Shown: one piece after another, positions 1,936 through 47,062 of the stretch
How the letters are laid out: each line of letters opens with the position of its first letter
How positions within the stretch are numbered: position 1 is the first letter of the stretch
Virus record (IMG/VR): IMGVR_UViG_3300030433_001358
Span: 19,876-83,875 of that record
From: a virus
Lineage: Duplodnaviria > Caudoviricetes
DNA: 64,000 bases
Direction: 5' to 3' (one strand)
Position numbers and translations under genes: made by a program
The notes under the pieces: generated by a model
Databases searched by the model: none
What the model was told of the DNA's origin: nothing
Seen by the model: only the letters and a program-made list of their open reading frames with translations

Positions 1936-3225
1936 ATGAGTGACTTGAATGACGTAGTTCAGGTGGTGATCTATGATCAGTCCACTGCTATCGCCACAAC
2001 CTCTTTCTCAATTCCCCTAATTCTCTCTACCTTTACAGATTTCTCTGAGCGTACTCGCACTTATACCGGCATCACTGGTGTAGGTGAAGATTTCAGCTCA
2101 ACGTCACCAGTGTACAAAATGGCAGAAAAGCTATTTGGTCAAGCTGGTGTTCTCGGGGCTATTCCTCCGAGCATTGTTGTTGGTCGTCGTCAAGTTGATG
2201 AAGTAACTATCACCCCGACAGTAGCTAACAACCAAACATATACAGTTACCTTGAACGGTGTTGATTACAATTATACCTCAGATGCTGATGCAACTGCTGC
2301 TGAAATTGCAACTGGTCTTGTAACAGCAATTGGTGTTGTTTCTGGTATTACTGTTACCGACAATACTGGTTCTCTGACTGTAGAGGTTACTACTCCCGGT
2401 GATGCTTGGAGTATTACTGTTTCTAGTAACCTAGTTAAAGTTGATACCACTCCCACTGAGACTTGGGTGGAAGCTCTTGAGGCTGTAGAGCAAGAGAATG
2501 ACAGTTGGTATTGCCTTGTTTCTGATGTTCAAACCACTGCTGATCAAGAAGCTCTTTCTGACGCTATTCAAGCTCGTGAGAAGATTTATGGTCTGAGTTC
2601 TGCTGATGCTGTAGCTCCCACCACTGGTACTACCGACATTGGTTATCTGCTTAACGCTAAGTCTGCCGCACGTACATTCGGTGTTTATTCTCCAACTGCT
2701 GCAACTGAATATCCAGAAGCTGCTTGGGTGGGTAGTCAACTAGCCGTAACTCCCGGTAGCAATGATTGGGATTTCAAACGGGCCAATGGTGTTACTGTTA
2801 GCAAACTAAGCTCCACTGCAATCACCAACCTGAAAGCTAAGAGCTGGAACTACTACATTGCCAAAGCTGGTGTAAACATTTTCCAGAATGGTGATATGTT
2901 TGATGGTAAGCCAATCGACACGGCTGTAGGTAAAGACTGGCTGAAAGCACGACTGCAAGAAGCTGTGTATTTCCGCATGATTAACGTACTCAAGATTCCG
3001 CTGACTGATCCCGGTCTTCTGATTATTGAGAATGAAATCCGCTCTGTAATGGCTCAAGCAGAGTCTAATGGTCTTGTTGACACTGGTTGGACTGTTTCTA
3101 CTCCTCCTGTTTCAAGCATCCCTGAGAATCTTCGTGCTCAACGTACTGCCGGTGTGTTTGTTATCCGTGCCCGTCTTGCTGGTGCAGTTCGTAAAGTAGA
3201 CATCGAAGTTTACCTTTCAGTATAA
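1936..3225 (+). CDS. Contractile tail sheath protein (DUF3383-like)
   Basis: 429 aa; 'YPEAAWVG', 'DWLKARLQE', 'ARLAGAVRKV' sheath motifs; synteny. Confidence 0.9.
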   Translation: MSDLNDVVQVVIYDQSTAIATTSFSIPLILSTFTDFSERTRTYTGITGVGEDFSSTSPVYKMAEKLFGQAGVLGAIPPSIVVGRRQVDEVTITPTVANNQTYTVTLNGVDYNYTSDADATAAEIATGLVTAIGVVSGITVTDNTGSLTVEVTTPGDAWSITVSSNLVKVDTTPTETWVEALEAVEQENDSWYCLVSDVQTTADQEALSDAIQAREKIYGLSSADAVAPTTGTTDIGYLLNAKSAARTFGVYSPTAATEYPEAAWVGSQLAVTPGSNDWDFKRANGVTVSKLSSTAITNLKAKSWNYYIAKAGVNIFQNGDMFDGKPIDTAVGKDWLKARLQEAVYFRMINVLKIPLTDPGLLIIENEIRSVMAQAESNGLVDTGWTVSTPPVSSIPENLRAQRTAGVFVIRARLAGAVRKVDIEVYLSV

Positions 3226-3237
3226 TAGGAGAATAAA

Positions 3238-3774
3238 ATGGCAGTTATCGGAAATTACAGTCCAGACGACTACACAGTAGTTATCTCTGTTCCGGGTAAA
3301 AACTTCACTCACCGAATCACTGGGTTCTCTGAAGGAAGTTTCATTTCAATGGAACGTCTTGTTCCAACCTCAAGTGCATACCAAGGGGTCGGTGCAAAAT
3401 CACAGGGTCGCGTGAAACGTAAAATCACTTCTCTCTCTGTAACCATTACACTTAGTCAACTATCAAGCTCTAATGATGTGTTGCAAGCCTTGCAAGCAGC
3501 AGATGCCCAAGACTCTACAAGTAATGAGTGGGTGTTTTCTTGCACTATGGCAGACCTCTCTGGTACTCATAAAGTATCAACCAATACGGCCATCATCCAA
3601 GCACCAGCTACTAAAGCCTTTGGTGACACTATTGATAGCCGTGACTGGGTGATTCACATGTTTGACTCCAATGAAGAGGGTGGCGGTAACATGCTTCTCT
3701 CTGAGGCAGAAGTTGCATCTATTACTGCTGCGGGCGGTACTGTAGACGACCGTTGGAAACTGAGCAATCAATAA
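3238..3774 (+). CDS. Tail tube protein (DUF3277-like)
   Basis: 'YSPDDYTVVI...ITGFSEGSFI...VTITLSQLSSSNDVL'; follows sheath. Confidence 0.75.
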   Translation: MAVIGNYSPDDYTVVISVPGKNFTHRITGFSEGSFISMERLVPTSSAYQGVGAKSQGRVKRKITSLSVTITLSQLSSSNDVLQALQAADAQDSTSNEWVFSCTMADLSGTHKVSTNTAIIQAPATKAFGDTIDSRDWVIHMFDSNEEGGGNMLLSEAEVASITAAGGTVDDRWKLSNQ

Positions 3775-40545: not shown

Positions 40546-42171
40546 CTAAATAAATGGTGGCTTATAAACCCACCCATCATCTTCTGGGACAACGTGAAGC
40601 CGACCATCTTCTAATTGCAACATAGTGTCACAGACGCCAAGTTCCCCCCACTCACGATCTTTAAGAACCTTTGTCCGAACTCGGCCACGAGTTTCATCAG
40701 GAAGAACCTCATTCTCTAGTGCAATGATACAACTACTCATCTGTTCGATCCCGCTGCTGCCTCTTAAAAATTCCTTCTTCACTTGACGCCAGTAAGCTTT
40801 AGGTTCTTCACCCTCTTTTACCTTTGGTGCGTTATCTTCCACGCGCTTGAGGTGACAAACAGCATGGACAGTGACGTTATTGTTTGTCATAAATGCTGCA
40901 AGCTCTTCGTAGAGCATATCAATATCTTTACGTTCGTTGTTACTTTCAAGTCCAGCAACAACCATAGAGATATGGTCAATAAAGATATGTTCACACCCAC
41001 AAATGAAATGCAGGTATTTAATCTGTTGCATTAGCTTGTCAACTTTCATTGAACCAAAGTGATCCAGAAAATAAGTACGCCCATTTGAGATAACCTTATT
41101 TTTTGCTTCTAGTGCTTGCTCTCTTGTTGCCACTGCCAGAGGATTCTTTCGGAAATCAGGGAGTCTGACGCCAAGCTCAAGTGCAACCAAGGATTGTTGT
41201 GTCTTTTTTGTAGGCTCTTCTAGAAAGATAAAGCCAACTTTGTAACCAGCAGCTACAAGCTCCCAAGCAATCTCACGGTTTAGCGTAGACTTACCAACAC
41301 CACTAAAAGCGGTGTAGGTGATAAGTTCGTTGCCTGTACGAATGCCGTGTAGTTTTTCCATGAGCTTGGGGTAGCGGTCAATGTAATGCCCTTCACGAAG
41401 TGGCTCAAGTAGACTATCTAAATCTACATCATCACCACAGATAATCTTTTCTGGGCTGTACTTCTCCAAACCAAAAGCAAGAATCTTGCCGAGTTCTGAA
41501 GAGTGCCCATTCAGCAGGCAGTCACGAGAGTCCTTCATACCGTGTGGGTGTGTGATGGTGTATATATTATCAGAAAGAAGCAGACCGGCAACTTCTTCTT
41601 TAGCCTCCTTGCCTTTTAGAATACCCTTCTTCAGCTCTTTTGCTGTCGCTTGGTCGCTATCAAAGGCCAGTACAATATCATTAAAAGACTGTACGAAGTC
41701 TAGGTTATGTGCTACGCACTCTGCTGCATTAGCTGTCCCCATAGAAATAGAAACTACACTTGGTTCAATCTTACCTTCGTATTTAGTTCCTTTTAGGCTG
41801 TCAAGAATAGCACGGCGAGTTGCTGGTACTTCTTCCTCACCCTCTACAATAATCAGCTTACGACCGCCCTTTGGCGTCTGCATCTGACCAAACATCTGCG
41901 CATTGACCTTTACAGTGCCAACAGTAGTAAAGTGAAAATCGTGATCTTTTGTGACAGTCCAATCACGTTTCTTAAAGCCAGTAAGCTCCCCAGCTTTGTT
42001 ATAGTATGGAAAATAAGTTGCCTCTACAGTTTTACCGTCTTTTTGGTTTACAGCAGACCGGATGCCATAAAACTCAGCATCTGCTTGAGTAAGCCCGCGC
42101 TCTGGTAGTGCTAGACATTTGTATTGCTGTACATCAGCAACAGTTTCTTTTGGAACATAACTTTCAGACAT
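40546..42171 (-). CDS. DNA primase-helicase (T7 gp4-like TOPRIM plus SF4 helicase)
   Basis: TOPRIM 'IVEGEEE', 'FDSD'; Walker A 'AFSGVGKST', 'FIDHIS', 'LRGSSGIEQ'; start refined to ATG 42171. Confidence 0.92.
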   Translation of the reverse strand: MSESYVPKETVADVQQYKCLALPERGLTQADAEFYGIRSAVNQKDGKTVEATYFPYYNKAGELTGFKKRDWTVTKDHDFHFTTVGTVKVNAQMFGQMQTPKGGRKLIIVEGEEEVPATRRAILDSLKGTKYEGKIEPSVVSISMGTANAAECVAHNLDFVQSFNDIVLAFDSDQATAKELKKGILKGKEAKEEVAGLLLSDNIYTITHPHGMKDSRDCLLNGHSSELGKILAFGLEKYSPEKIICGDDVDLDSLLEPLREGHYIDRYPKLMEKLHGIRTGNELITYTAFSGVGKSTLNREIAWELVAAGYKVGFIFLEEPTKKTQQSLVALELGVRLPDFRKNPLAVATREQALEAKNKVISNGRTYFLDHFGSMKVDKLMQQIKYLHFICGCEHIFIDHISMVVAGLESNNERKDIDMLYEELAAFMTNNNVTVHAVCHLKRVEDNAPKVKEGEEPKAYWRQVKKEFLRGSSGIEQMSSCIIALENEVLPDETRGRVRTKVLKDREWGELGVCDTMLQLEDGRLHVVPEDDGWVYKPPFI

Positions 42172-42204
42172 CTTTTCTCCTCTTTCTTTCTTAAAATAGC
42201 CCAA

Positions 42205-43924: not shown

Positions 43925-44069
43925 TCATATTCTCCTCTATAATGCTCTGTAGTGCTCTGTATGAGCTTTTAGCCCTTCCCCTGTACCATCGCATAGCCTC
44001 TATATAGATCGTTCAATATAGGACGCTGTAGAAAGCCAGAGAAGGCTTTTGGATGGCATCACTCCGTTC

Positions 44070-44267
44070 TTATTGTTGTTGCCACCCATCATTTGCAATC
44101 AGAGAGGACAATTGTTCCAGTTGTTCAGCTTCGCAAAAGAAATCATCTTCTGTGTAGGCTGGAGTTAGTCCTTGTGAGAATCGTACATCATTCTCGACTT
44201 TCATCCCTTCAATCCTTGCTATGCAAGCAAATCCTCGTAGTTGGTATGCTAGTGCTAAGTGATTCAT
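44070..44267 (-). CDS. Hypothetical protein
   Basis: 'IEGMKVEN..R..QG...AY.EDDF' motif seen in phages. Confidence 0.65.
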   Translation of the reverse strand: MNHLALAYQLRGFACIARIEGMKVENDVRFSQGLTPAYTEDDFFCEAEQLEQLSSLIANDGWQQQ

Positions 44268-44270
44268 TTG

Positions 44271-44720
44271 TCAATCCTCCCATTTCTTGTAGAAGTCTTT
44301 CATAACATCATACCCCATAACAACACCAGAATTCAATAGATCGGCTAACTCGTTCGCACACGCAATTGCTTTTTGTTCTTCTTCCATGAGCTGATTCTCA
44401 GGCCACAGTGTACCAGAACCGGTACCAGACTCTTTACACATATAGACCACACCAGCATCATAACCAATAGTAGCCCGCACCTGTCCAATTGTAAGTTGCC
44501 GTACCTTCGGAAAATGCTTGAATTTAGCAATCTTACCGGGGTTATTCACCCATGAACCTTCCTTATTACACGTATGACAACCCACTTCCTTATCTTTACC
44601 TGCAATTTGCCAATAACCTGTACCACCACAGTCCTCGCACTCAATATAATACCGATCGTGGGTGCAGTATGCATTATATACCACCTGCTTCAAATTGTAT
44701 TTCGTTTTAATCGTGCTCAT
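44271..44720 (-). CDS. Protein with DnaJ-like zinc finger
   Basis: CEDCGGTG ... CHTC..EG. Confidence 0.65.
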   Translation of the reverse strand: MSTIKTKYNLKQVVYNAYCTHDRYYIECEDCGGTGYWQIAGKDKEVGCHTCNKEGSWVNNPGKIAKFKHFPKVRQLTIGQVRATIGYDAGVVYMCKESGTGSGTLWPENQLMEEEQKAIACANELADLLNSGVVMGYDVMKDFYKKWED

Positions 44721-44947
44721 TATGTATCCTCCTCACAAAACTTCTTGAAATAGTCCATAGAATCCTTATCATGTTCATCGAGGATGTGTACAGTGATCTT
44801 TGGTTCATACTTACCACCTCGAAACTGCTGCTCTGCTTCTCCAGCCTTCTCAGCTTGAGCTTTCTTAGTGAACACACCTTGCACATAGTTGTGTGTCCCA
44901 TCATCACCCCAACGACGCATTGTAACAACGTATACTTCTGTTTTCAT
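44720..44947 (-). CDS. Hypothetical protein
   Basis: 'YVVTMRRWG...HNYVQGVF...A...GE.E..FRGGKY'; first gene after the leftward promoter. Confidence 0.7.
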   Translation of the reverse strand: MKTEVYVVTMRRWGDDGTHNYVQGVFTKKAQAEKAGEAEQQFRGGKYEPKITVHILDEHDKDSMDYFKKFCEEDT

Positions 44948-45021
44948 TAAACAATCCTCCTTTAGATGCCCTTGTGCTACAACTTCATGTGTTTAGGCTG
45001 TTTTAGTAGCCTGTGAGACAC

Positions 45022-45049
45022 ATTCTACACGATATTCTGTAGGTGTCAA
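45022..45049 (-). promoter_or_regulatory. Leftward sigma70 promoter of divergent pair
   Basis: Minus strand TTGACA-N16-TAGAAT. Confidence 0.8.
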
Positions 45050-45092
45050 GCCCTCTTTGTAAAAATATTCTCTTTTCTTTTAGTCAAAAGGG

Positions 45093-45120
45093 TTGACAGA
45101 TTGAATTTATCATGTATAAT
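45093..45120 (+). promoter_or_regulatory. Rightward consensus sigma70 promoter of divergent pair
   Basis: TTGACA-N16-TATAAT with AT-rich upstream region. Confidence 0.85.
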
Positions 45121-45127
45121 GTATCCC

Positions 45128-45485
45128 GTAGCAGCATATTTATGTACGCCTCTAACCGCAAGGACATTGGCAGCTACTCGACTTGAAAGAGAATGGTCAT
45201 CTTAACAGATTCACCAACCGAGTCAAGTTTAAAGACAAGAAAGAAGACACGTGGTCAAGGTGTGGGGTTGTGAGAGCATAACACCGTGTCTACCCTTTGC
45301 AATAGGGGAAATGCTCAAGCTGAATGGATTGCAACAGGATTCAGCGTGTGGGGTTGACAGGATCAATCCTCTAGCGTAGGCTAGCTGTAGATGGCTCCGA
45401 AGAGCAAAGCAGACACCAGAACCATTAGTTCGCTCTTAGGTCATCTGTAGAGGTGATATGAGTGGGCTGGGTTTCTTGTGTCTGT
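45128..45485 (+). ncRNA. Candidate large structured non-coding RNA (about 360 nt)
   Basis: No ORF on + strand; at least nine contiguous stem-loops with GCAA/GAGA/GTAG/CGAA loops and many G-U pairs; starts about 7 nt after a consensus -10. Confidence 0.7.
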
Positions 45486-45544
45486 AAATTCACCAAAGAG
45501 CAATGGATATATAATATAGTAATAAGAGATAAGGAGAATAGAAT

Positions 45545-45763
45545 ATGAGTAACATCACTCTCAATGTAGAGTTCCTAGCTGGGACAGACTTCACTGAAGC
45601 TGTAGAAGAAGCTAAACAGAAGTGCCAGCAATGGGATGTGGCTTTGGTATGCTTTAAGTTCAATGGTGTTGAGTGTTCTGTTTCTAGAAATGCTGATGCT
45701 GAGAATCTACATAAACGGTATATGAAAGCCTTGGGTAGCGACAAGAAATATATTATTGGTTGA
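45545..45763 (+). CDS. Early hypothetical protein
   Basis: 72 aa; RBS AAGGAG. Confidence 0.7.
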   Translation: MSNITLNVEFLAGTDFTEAVEEAKQKCQQWDVALVCFKFNGVECSVSRNADAENLHKRYMKALGSDKKYIIG

Positions 45764-45773
45764 GGAGGAATAT

Positions 45774-46124
45774 ATGAACAAGTCTTATCTAGAGATGTAT
45801 GCTAATGTTGAAGGTGTTGTAGAGGCGACTAGATTTGAAGCCTTTTGTCTTTGGAAACAGTGGCACGAAGAAAATGGTTATCACTGGTATAGCGAAAATC
45901 ATGGACCCCTGATTACAGTGGGTCACTTAGAAGGACGACCTGTTGCTATTGCTCCACTGCTGCATACAGTCAACGGTAAATGTATCATGTTCCTTGAGGC
46001 TACAAGCGTTGTTGTAGATTGGGATATGATTCGAGAGTGGTTGAAAGAAAATGTCCCGAGCGTTTGTGATGGGGAATATGTTAAGATTTGGGATGCTGGT
46101 AATTTTCACTGCCTTGTACACTGA
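45774..46124 (+). CDS. Early hypothetical protein
   Basis: Start refined after GAGGAGG. Confidence 0.7.
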   Translation: MNKSYLEMYANVEGVVEATRFEAFCLWKQWHEENGYHWYSENHGPLITVGHLEGRPVAIAPLLHTVNGKCIMFLEATSVVVDWDMIREWLKENVPSVCDGEYVKIWDAGNFHCLVH

Positions 46125-46306
46125 GGGGTAAATAATGAAAATCATAATTGATACACTAGACTTAAAAGAACGTGTCTATAGGATGCTTCGTGATATTGAT
46201 GATGGGAAGTATAAAGAGGTTCCTTCTGTTTGTGCTGGAATGTTGAATAAAGAACAGACAGCAGGATTGGATGCTCTTATTAAATAGATTGAGGAGGAAA
46301 GCTAAG

Positions 46307-46489
46307 ATGTTAGTTAAAGACCTGATTGAAAAGCTGAAAGAATTTGATGAAAATGCTGTCGTAGAAGTTTATCGCGGCTATGATCCTGAATATGGAGAGT
46401 GTTACGATTATCCAGAGAATTTTATTCTTGAGGATACAGGTTGGGATTATATATCGAACTCTACTACAAAAACCTTGTATATTAGTTGA
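46307..46489 (+). CDS. Small acidic early protein
   Basis: 'MLVKDLIEKLKEFDENAVV' common phage motif. Confidence 0.65.
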   Translation: MLVKDLIEKLKEFDENAVVEVYRGYDPEYGECYDYPENFILEDTGWDYISNSTTKTLYIS

Positions 46490-46498
46490 GGAGGATGT

Positions 46499-46915
46499 AT
46501 GAATAAGAATGTACAAGTGGGAGATACAATTAAGATTGTTAAGGCTATGAAACCTTCTTACTGGTATGTAGACAGGATTGGTGAAGAGTTTGAAGTTTCT
46601 GGTATTTTACCTGATAATTTCATAGTTTACACCGAAGATTTGGAGGGTGCATGTTATGTATCTAAAGAAGATTGTATTCTTGTAAGCACTACAAATCATA
46701 GCAAACAAGTACCTGAAAGTCGATATACATCCTCTATCAATGAAATCGAAGTGTTTGATGAGGTAGGAGAGATTGTATCTACAATTATGCGATTTGATGA
46801 ACATACAGCTTCTGTTCAAATTAAAGAGGATTATGTAACAAATGCAGATGAGTGGACAAACATTTCATTCACTATTCATAAGGCTCTTGTGGATATGGGA
46901 TTGTATAGTGAATAA
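46499..46915 (+). CDS. Early hypothetical protein with KOW/SH3-like N-terminus
   Basis: 'VGDTIKIVKA...WY.DRIGEEFEV'. Confidence 0.7.
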   Translation: MNKNVQVGDTIKIVKAMKPSYWYVDRIGEEFEVSGILPDNFIVYTEDLEGACYVSKEDCILVSTTNHSKQVPESRYTSSINEIEVFDEVGEIVSTIMRFDEHTASVQIKEDYVTNADEWTNISFTIHKALVDMGLYSE

Positions 46916-47062
46916 AGAAACCAGAATGCCACTTGACAATCCCTTTCTGGCTTGCTACAGTGCAGCATATTGAACGATAAGGGCATACCCCTATGCTCCC
47001 TATTACTTTAACACTGGCGCTTCATATACGACGCTACAGAGCGTTATAAAAGGAGAGACAAA

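Follow-up and report, generated by a model that had tools for sequence, protein, structure and literature searches.

The window analysed here, 64,000 nucleotides of phage DNA corresponding to bases 19876-83875 of an 83,875-bp record in IMG/VR, contains at positions 45128-45485 a non-coding stretch that lies between two divergently transcribed operons. Our best reading is that host RNA polymerase transcribes this stretch, as part of a longer leader RNA, from the strongest promoter of the phage. We consider the chances about even that it forms a structured 5' leader that acts in cis on the rightward early operon and is equipped with a processing hairpin of the RNase III type. Judged by sequence comparison, the leader appears to belong to a small RNA family that some Ounavirinae-like phages from seawater and wastewater carry at the same junction. 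Neither this family nor its covarying 5' module, nor the swapping of non-coding leader cassettes among relatives, has been described before, as far as the available tools can tell. The initial annotation of this DNA had proposed a large ornate RNA with a sponge or decoy function, which overstates the evidence; the feature is nonetheless real.

The promoter at 45093-45120 is the sole site in the 83.9-kb genome that matches the sigma-70 consensus at 12 of 12 positions, and the leader sequence that follows it occurs once in the genome. The initial annotation had reported a + strand stretch free of open reading frames (ORFs) directly after TTGACA-N16-TATAAT, and on both counts we agree: the promoter is confirmed and the leader (45127-45544) holds no + strand ORF of note. 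Nor is any open frame kept among relatives, the open stretches in the window and in the related loci L031, L034, L047 and L038 differing in frame and position. The annotation of the cultured relative vB_PsaM_M1 (L094, OP714164.2), whose leader occupies 3176-3622, places a hypothetical protein of 57 aa, UZS00817, within the leader and its long hairpin (3441-3614); it is probably a spurious call, because its frame is not kept in L031 or L047.

Searches for known RNAs were likewise negative. The Rfam 15 covariance models, among them those for GOLLD, ROOL, HEARO, riboswitches, introns, RNase P and 6S RNA, gave no match at the gathering score anywhere in the window and, with E up to 10 in 44900-45700, only two matches at chance level, sR15 (19.9 bits, cut-off 40) and HOTAIRM1_3; ARAGORN found no tRNA or tmRNA gene in the window. 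The view that the element is no tRNA, tmRNA, RNase P or intron is thereby upheld. There was no match to the region by blastn among 50,697 phage records, none in exact-pattern scans of viral and metagenome contigs with the promoter, none in an exact-pattern scan with the motif of the P1 loop described below, and none in viral contigs when the two proteins encoded on either side, p72 and o75, were used as single queries.

The 5' domain and its relatives

Loci of relatives were obtained through homologues of two flanking small proteins in Logan, ENA, JGI and IMG/VR assemblies, and are designated here by L numbers. The divergent gap measures 550-660 nt in L031, L034, L036, L038, L039 and L017, and approximately 300 nt in L026, L030 and L092. 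An all-against-all comparison resolved the leaders into type A (L017, L002, L036 and L039) and type B (L031, L034 and L047), with L038 and the window each standing alone. Type-B members are 78-98% alike, and L034 is 99% identical to vB_PsaM_M1, a seawater Pseudomonas phage classed in the Ounavirinae whose helicase is 47% identical to that of the window. When the whole window leader is aligned, globally or semi-globally, its similarity to type-B leaders is weak (z 1.2-2.3) and that to type-A leaders is at z ~0. The first 140 nt, aligned semi-globally with L038, reach z 7.55, a value attained by none of 2000 dinucleotide shuffles; against L047 they reach z 2.4.

The common anatomy of this 5' domain begins with a stem, P1, a few nt from the inferred start of transcription. 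Within the P1 loop, UYUAAS is followed by a mini-hairpin of 2-3 bp and by (G)RCAYU, after which come the closing arm of P1, CUCG, a second stem (P2), a purine-rich linker beginning UUAAAGA, and ACGUGG (Table 1 gives the window's version). The mini-hairpin takes the form CC[GCAA]GG in the window, CA[GAAA]UG and CA[GAGA]UG in type B, and GC[GCAG]GC in L038, and a 15-nt insertion specific to the window phage splits the 5' arm of its P1.

A covariance model of the domain, R2, was built from an alignment (A3) of L031, L034 and L047 only, the window being excluded. It finds L038 with 20.5 bits (E 4e-4 in 47 kb), and when the surrounding 4 kb are scanned without filtering it ranks the window leader first, where expected and on the expected strand (45137-45274, + strand, 12.7 bits, E 0.005), a match that counts solely as a targeted test because an unrelated coding site scores 14 bits with R2 in a 200-kb search. 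The model finds no member in L080-L091.

Many substitutions in the domain are compensatory. Within type B alone, which is 91% identical overall, differences cluster in the arms of P1, where five of the nine pairs change on both sides. When five sequences are aligned (A6), pairing holds in 98% of cells, and both partners differ in 13 of the 26 pairs (7/9 in P1, 2/2 in the mini-hairpin, 3/6 in P2), as against 31-38% pairing when partners are slid by 1-3 columns, and none of 500 shuffles does as well; these counts are an upper bound, because an alignment fitted to the structure of the model favours pairing. The covariation that the initial annotation expected of a genuine RNA is found in part of the structure, the 5' domain. 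In position, too, the window leader agrees with the family: it lies at the divergent junction by a DUF7336-like gene, behind a promoter of sigma-70 type, holds no ORF and stands before the first early gene. On these comparisons the 5' domain has real RNA-level support, and it is homologous to the leaders of L038, L031, L034, L047 and vB_PsaM_M1 at the same junction.

The long hairpin and the middle of the leader

For the 358 nt of 45128-45485 the folding energy is -112.7 kcal/mol (z -1.99), which 4 of 100 shuffles equal or better, and the - strand gives z -0.19. Taken singly the small stems reach z -0.9 to -2.6, and sliding 80-nt windows over 45128-45400, with z near 0, are indistinguishable from shuffles. 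The 77-nt hairpin at 45409-45485, in which 7 of 31 pairs are G.U, folds at -38.0 kcal/mol (z -6.47), a value reached by none of 200 shuffles, as against -19.4 kcal/mol (z -2.36) on the opposite strand. By energy alone, only this hairpin clearly beats chance. The initial annotation had described the region as almost fully tiled by stems, which energy supports weakly, because the whole, the single stems and the sliding windows score as they do. What stands of that description is P1, the GCAA mini-hairpin, P2 and the long hairpin, all of which gain from comparison with relatives, the last by energy as well; the middle part does not. Nevertheless, the inverted repeats it had listed are all present, coordinate for coordinate, and its argument from G-U pairs for a + strand RNA holds, given the asymmetry of the long hairpin and the compensatory changes in P1 and P2. 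Such hairpins are strand-asymmetric because many G.U pairs become A.C mismatches on the other strand.

The long hairpin comprises 31 pairs across five coaxial helices, longer than the 22 bp or so of mostly regular helix in RNase III substrates, and 59 nt separate its end from the ATG of the first early gene. The type-B loci and L038 have a hairpin of 100-118 nt, with 39-48 bp of which 7-13 are G.U, that ends some 40-45 nt before the start codon and scores z -5.8 to -8.4, as against -0.8 to -3.6 on the other strand. A model of the type-B hairpin finds that of L038 (22.3 bits, E 0.0025), and in a four-sequence alignment of the relatives' hairpins 96.8% of cells are paired and 16 of 39 pairs change on both sides. 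A further model, R3, finds no additional member in 37 loci.

The window hairpin shares the position and helix order of these hairpins. Its central helix, of the form UAGUUCG.UC/G..UGGGCU., reads UAGUUCGCUC/GAGUGGGCUG in the window and UAGUUCGGUC/GGCUGGGCUA in L047, with U.G, U.G and G.U at matching positions and one compensatory exchange of C-G for G-C. The internal loop, UUAG/AU in the window, is UAG/AU in L031, L034 and L047, and the apical helix opens with a G.U pair as in the relatives, being otherwise completely different.

Between the 5' domain and the long hairpin lies a string of short hairpins that individually reach z -1.3 to -2.6. Type-B leaders have hairpins in the same order, as judged by eye only, the counterparts being a GUAG-loop hairpin 9 nt before the conserved UGGCUCCG and a 5-7-bp hairpin preceding that; the UGGCUCCG block itself is conserved. 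A structure-blind MAFFT alignment of the window, L031 and L034 loses the register of the window's stems and is uninformative. The motif GGTTGACAG occurs twice in the window, once at 45352, and also in L031, L034, L047 and L038; in the relatives it stands at the 5' foot of the long hairpin and is followed by a good -10 (TATAGT, TAAGAT or TATAGA). This recurrence, together with the good -10 in relatives, makes a second, internal promoter plausible. The leader also contains a direct repeat, AUUCACCAA, at 45209-45217 and 45488-45496, and the near-repeats UAGGCUAGCUGUAGA and UAGGUCAUCUGUAGA (45377-45391 and 45437-45451), which are 60 nt apart; CUGUAGAGG is also present in a type-B hairpin.

Table 1. 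Features of the divergent junction and its leader, in window coordinates
Feature	Position	Strand	Description
Leftward promoter	45022..45049	-	Sigma-70 type, TTGACA-N16-TAGAAT, 11/12 match; drives the replication-gene operon (o75 ... helicase, polymerase)
Rightward early promoter P1	45093..45120	+	TTGACA-N16-TATAAT, TG just before the -10, 12/12 match; inferred start near 45127
Non-coding leader RNA	45127..45544	+	About 418 nt; spans the interval between the inferred start and the ATG at 45545
Stem P1	45128..45177	+	Outer stem 45128-32/45173-77 (GUAGC/GCUAC), inner stem 45148-50/45169-71 (GCC/GGC)
P1 loop		+	UCUAAC, mini-hairpin CC[GCAA]GG (45156-63), ACAUU
Stem P2	45180..45229	+	GACUUG (45180-85) with CAAGUU (45224-29), enclosing a small hairpin
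Linker and ACGUGG block	45229..45250	+	Purine-rich, single-stranded UUAAAGACAAGAAAGAAGAC, then ACGUGG; aligned with UUAAAGAGAAAAGGAAAG...ACGUGG of L031, L034, L047
String of short hairpins	45245..45405	+	45245-91, 45293-308, 45319-45, 45350-70, 45371-84 (GUAG loop), 45394-405
Long imperfect hairpin	45409..45485	+	31 bp, 7 G.U; central 10-bp helix, internal loop UUAG/AU, 7-bp apical helix, GUAG loop
Conserved block 5' of the first gene	45488..45547	+	UUCACCAA, A/U-rich stretch with TATAAT (45510-15) and AUAGUAAUAA, ribosome-binding site AGGAGA (45531-36), ATG 45545
First early gene p72	45545..45763	+	72 aa, no known family; homologue in L017 79% identical

A proposed cis-acting leader and its alternatives

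Comparison with relatives suggests that leaders at this junction move as units. L026 is 95% identical to the window over 44950-45049 and the match ends exactly at 45049, in the -35 of the leftward promoter. L017 is 95% identical over the 81 nt of 45044-45124, through the -10 of the rightward promoter, past which the two diverge: in L017 roughly 490 nt of unrelated non-coding leader follow, together with an additional gene of 127 aa; it matches the window again at 16 identical nt around the ribosome-binding site (RBS) and ATG, and in the p72 homologue. Since the L017 match breaks after the -10 and resumes at the RBS, whole leader cassettes are evidently exchanged between promoter and RBS. More generally, in L026, L038 and L017 similarity breaks exactly at the promoter hexamers and the RBS (window 45049/45050, 45124/45125 and 45533), and promoters and ribosome-binding sites appear, on sequence grounds, to be recombination joints for gene and leader cassettes. 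A wastewater run, X6, was found to hold a relative with 45050-45544 replaced, which was resolved as a locus of the L017 type. The block from UUCACCAA through AUAGUAAUAA to the RBS (45488-45547) is conserved in L031, L034 and L047; a scan with UUCACCAA...AUAGUAAUAA yielded 39 loci, and L047 alone among them is related. The first genes 3' of the leader are mutually unrelated in the window, L031, L034 and L038, and such differences among family members indicate that the leader belongs to the operon's head and serves the entire operon instead of any single gene. Its location after the promoter and ahead of the RBS, the changing genes 3' of it and the exchange of whole cassettes fit a cis-acting operon leader better than a free RNA. 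Leader cassettes that are swapped precisely between -10 and RBS are thus, like genes, units of modular phage evolution.

In such a leader the 5'-terminal stem would shield the 5' end of the transcript; stems of this kind are the classical means by which bacterial mRNAs escape 5'-end-dependent decay. The long hairpin, whose asymmetric internal loop is conserved, may be a signal for processing by a double-strand-specific enzyme, host RNase III being the most likely one. A cut there would detach the leader from the coding sequence and determine how stable the early mRNA is and how it is translated, in the manner of T7 R0.3 and the lambda N leader. Among phages, T7 and lambda are the only ones whose long structured early-operon leaders have been studied well. 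In T7, as Dunn and Studier reportedly described in 1983, the tandem early promoters A1-A3 are followed by an untranslated leader, the RNase III site R0.3 and then gene 0.3, and the lambda N leader carries nutL and an RNase III-sensitive hairpin before N. RNase III substrates comprise about two helical turns (~22 bp), internal loops leading to single-strand cleavage and to stable hairpin ends, and the T7 early region contains five RNase III signals (PMC3867540). A coaxial helix of 31-48 bp with a conserved asymmetric loop fits these rules and the layout mirrors that of T7 and, less closely, that of the lambda N leader, which favours a cis-acting leader with a processing hairpin.

The likeness to T7 extends to one or more sigma-70 promoters of great strength, a leader several hundred nt long, a long imperfect hairpin with an internal loop tens of nt before the first early gene, and a polycistronic transcript. 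There is, however, no sequence relation; T7 has no counterpart of the conserved, covarying 5' domain, the hairpin is longer than the T7 signals (31 bp in the window, 39-48 bp in relatives), and cleavage here is a prediction. The lambda N leader is similar in being an early-promoter leader with a small 5' RNA signal and a large hairpin before the RBS of the first gene, and it differs in that the window leader has no boxA match, a mini-hairpin far smaller than boxB and a downstream gene that is not conserved. The virulent Pseudomonas phages 14-1, LUZ19, LUZ24, YuA, PAK_P3 and phiKZ have candidate non-coding RNAs derived from 5' untranslated regions (5'UTRs), which resemble the window leader in being structured, 5'UTR-derived and conserved among close relatives (bioRxiv 10.1101/2023.10.13.562163). 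Those RNAs are mostly shorter than 250 nt and have a terminator inside the 5'UTR, whereas none is predicted in the window leader, which also has no sequence similarity to any record in the phage collection searched. GOLLD and ROOL, with which the initial annotation compared the element, are alike only in being non-coding and phage-borne. The window element is at most half their size, gives no match to them at E<=10, has no demonstrated multi-domain long-range architecture and lies directly before a gene; statistical or comparative support is confined to its 5' domain and 3' hairpin, and the likeness is not borne out. In kind, the window leader belongs with the structured early leaders and 5'UTR-derived RNAs of virulent phages (T7, lambda, and the PAK_P3 and phiKZ candidates), as a sequence-unrelated example, with a covariation-supported 5' module, in Ounavirinae-like phages of marine and wastewater bacteria. 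A cultured member is available for experiments, vB_PsaM_M1 on Pseudomonas sp. ZM01, and, if the hairpin is an RNase III site, promoter, leader and hairpin could serve together as an expression or processing part.

Several observations weigh against this interpretation. RNase III cleavage is something we purely infer. The leaders of L026, L030 and L092 are only 100-190 nt long and that of L017 is unrelated behind the same promoter, so the specific fold is dispensable in these kin. In the window itself, the hairpin is not significant against the relatives' models (R1, 7.1 bits, E 1.1; R3, 5.2 bits, E 5.9) or against their sequences (z 0.2-1.6), and its place in the family is tentative, resting on position and architecture. 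The middle 160 nt are without statistical support. To these must be added the coding site that outscores the window with R2 and the upper-bound nature of the A6 counts, both given above, and the fact that the RNA evidence consists of assembled contigs, which give no read-level start, cleavage or abundance.

Two metatranscriptome runs of one sample (X4 and X5) hold the phage, with contigs covering 45256-45714 and 45337-45509. The former is unbroken from the leader across the long hairpin into the first ORF. Such contigs support co-transcription of leader and gene weakly, because they show no ends, strand or level and may reflect DNA carry-over; they leave 44898-45255 uncovered, a gap that cannot show absence.

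A bolder proposal, possible though doubtful, is that the 5' domain (the UCUAAC-GNRA-GACAUU loop with P2) is a new recognition module, which would act either in cis, reprogramming host transcription or RNA decay through processive antitermination or against Rho, or as an abundant first-wave trans RNA cut at the hairpin. The unrelated leader cassettes that relatives have behind the same promoter would then be alternative versions of one host-takeover function, exchanged as genes are.

It is rather unlikely, in our estimation, that the 5' 280-360 nt come free, whether through processing at the long hairpin or through pausing, and act in trans early in infection as a regulator or decoy by binding some host protein or RNA. 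Such a role would suit the very strong promoter, the exchange of leader cassettes as units and the retention of 400 nt of non-coding DNA, which phage genomes seldom keep; the conserved P1 loop (UCUAAC ... GACAYU) and GNRA mini-hairpin could be a binding site, and small RNAs derived from 5'UTRs have been reported in virulent Pseudomonas phages (bioRxiv 10.1101/2023.10.13.562163). The RNA has, however, no defined 3' end. No intrinsic terminator (a G+C-rich stem with a U-run behind it) is predicted 3' of the promoter on the + strand of 44000-47000, the sequence directly 3' of the long hairpin being UAAAUUCACC, and the RNA-library contig that begins at 45256 continues into the first ORF; the discrete free RNA of the initial annotation is therefore not borne out. 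No target, partner or repeated binding motif was found, and some relatives have short or unrelated leaders. GGA-type motifs are not conserved in relatives; on inspection, the GGA and ARN motifs expected of a CsrA or Hfq sponge occur without being enriched or conserved, and this candidate was rejected. Of the roles once suggested (sponge, decoy, scaffold or primer), none found support.

An element for processive antitermination or against Rho in cis, comparable to put, nut/boxA or the rrn leader, would be made just after the promoter and allow RNA polymerase to read through a long multi-cassette early region. We regard this as unlikely. The leader heads an operon of variable downstream genes and, being long and untranslated, would otherwise be exposed to Rho, and its conserved single-stranded UCUAAC beside a small GNRA hairpin loosely recalls boxA-boxB. 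Nevertheless the mini-hairpin has only 2-3 bp, the rrn boxA (GCUCUUUAACAA-like) is unmatched within 3 mismatches anywhere in the leader, the P1 loop included, boxA-like matches across the window are at chance (88 against 86 expected), and the + strand scan of 44000-47000 predicts no terminator 3' of the leader. The ops element of RfaH was also sought, by eye, and gave no match.

That the region is mainly a DNA-level control region, with tandem promoters and protein-binding inverted repeats whose folding as RNA is incidental, seems to us quite unlikely. Candidate tandem promoters do exist: promoter P1, the GGTTGACA site at 45352-59 with its poor -10 (TTGACA 45354-59), and a proximal TTCACC-N17-TAATAT. 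GGTTGACAG is conserved in the window and relatives, where a good -10 follows it, as is the block UUCACCAA...TA.A.A, and T7 likewise has tandem early promoters. Against this, the hairpins are strongly strand-asymmetric through their G.U pairs, and in P1, P2 and the hairpin of the relatives it is the RNA pairing that compensatory changes preserve, whereas a DNA operator would conserve sequence, not pairing.

It is highly improbable that a structured RNA from the strong promoter forms an R-loop or primer for an origin by the replication genes: the divergent junction lies beside the helicase/polymerase operon and cumulative GC skew turns at 44-46 kb, but this turn coincides with the switch in gene orientation and needs no origin, and neither iterons nor an AT-rich unwinding element was found. 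A decayed gene remnant was rejected, the 127-aa gene that L017 has in the same place leaving no tblastn trace in the window.

Genome context and further observations

The record from which the window derives comes from marine metagenomes and has 90-bp direct terminal repeats. Pseudomonas phages of the phiPsa374 and KIL groups have family A DNA polymerases about 60% identical to its own. The - strand operon on the left of the junction comprises o75, a DUF7336-like gene of 75 aa, followed by several small genes and by the genes for a DnaB-type helicase and the polymerase; the + strand operon on the right consists of small genes without assigned function. The helicase (40546-42204) is 84-89% identical to the helicases of phages L002-L008, in which the polymerase is only 22-27% identical and the neighbours are very different, and this similarity amid such neighbours points to strong mosaicism around the replication module. 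The relatives identified through the helicase (L002-L011) are mosaic and lack the window element.

Type-A leaders form a family of their own (L017:707-1202, L002:3310-3790 on the minus strand, and the divergent gaps of L036 and L039), again with no match in Rfam. They share a conserved element of 52-160 nt (GGCGUUUC...AAAGCAAAACCUGACA) about 25 nt after the start, and a strand-specific, Y-shaped domain, unrelated in sequence, that stands at the same distance from the first gene as the window hairpin (z -4.6 to -4.9). Between this leader and the p72 homologue, the wastewater relative L017 carries the 127-aa gene (1203-1586), whose VLCVCSAGLLRSP motif is of the form CX5R-S, like that of low-molecular-weight phosphotyrosine phosphatases or ArsC. 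In a helicase-related IMG/VR contig, a group I intron (L006:7856-8075; RF00028, 66.8 bits, E 1.8e-14) is found close to the DNA polymerase region, and the leftward operon of the closest o75 relative encodes a protein whose Gad2 domain belongs to the defence-associated family PF26128 (L026:4235-5225).

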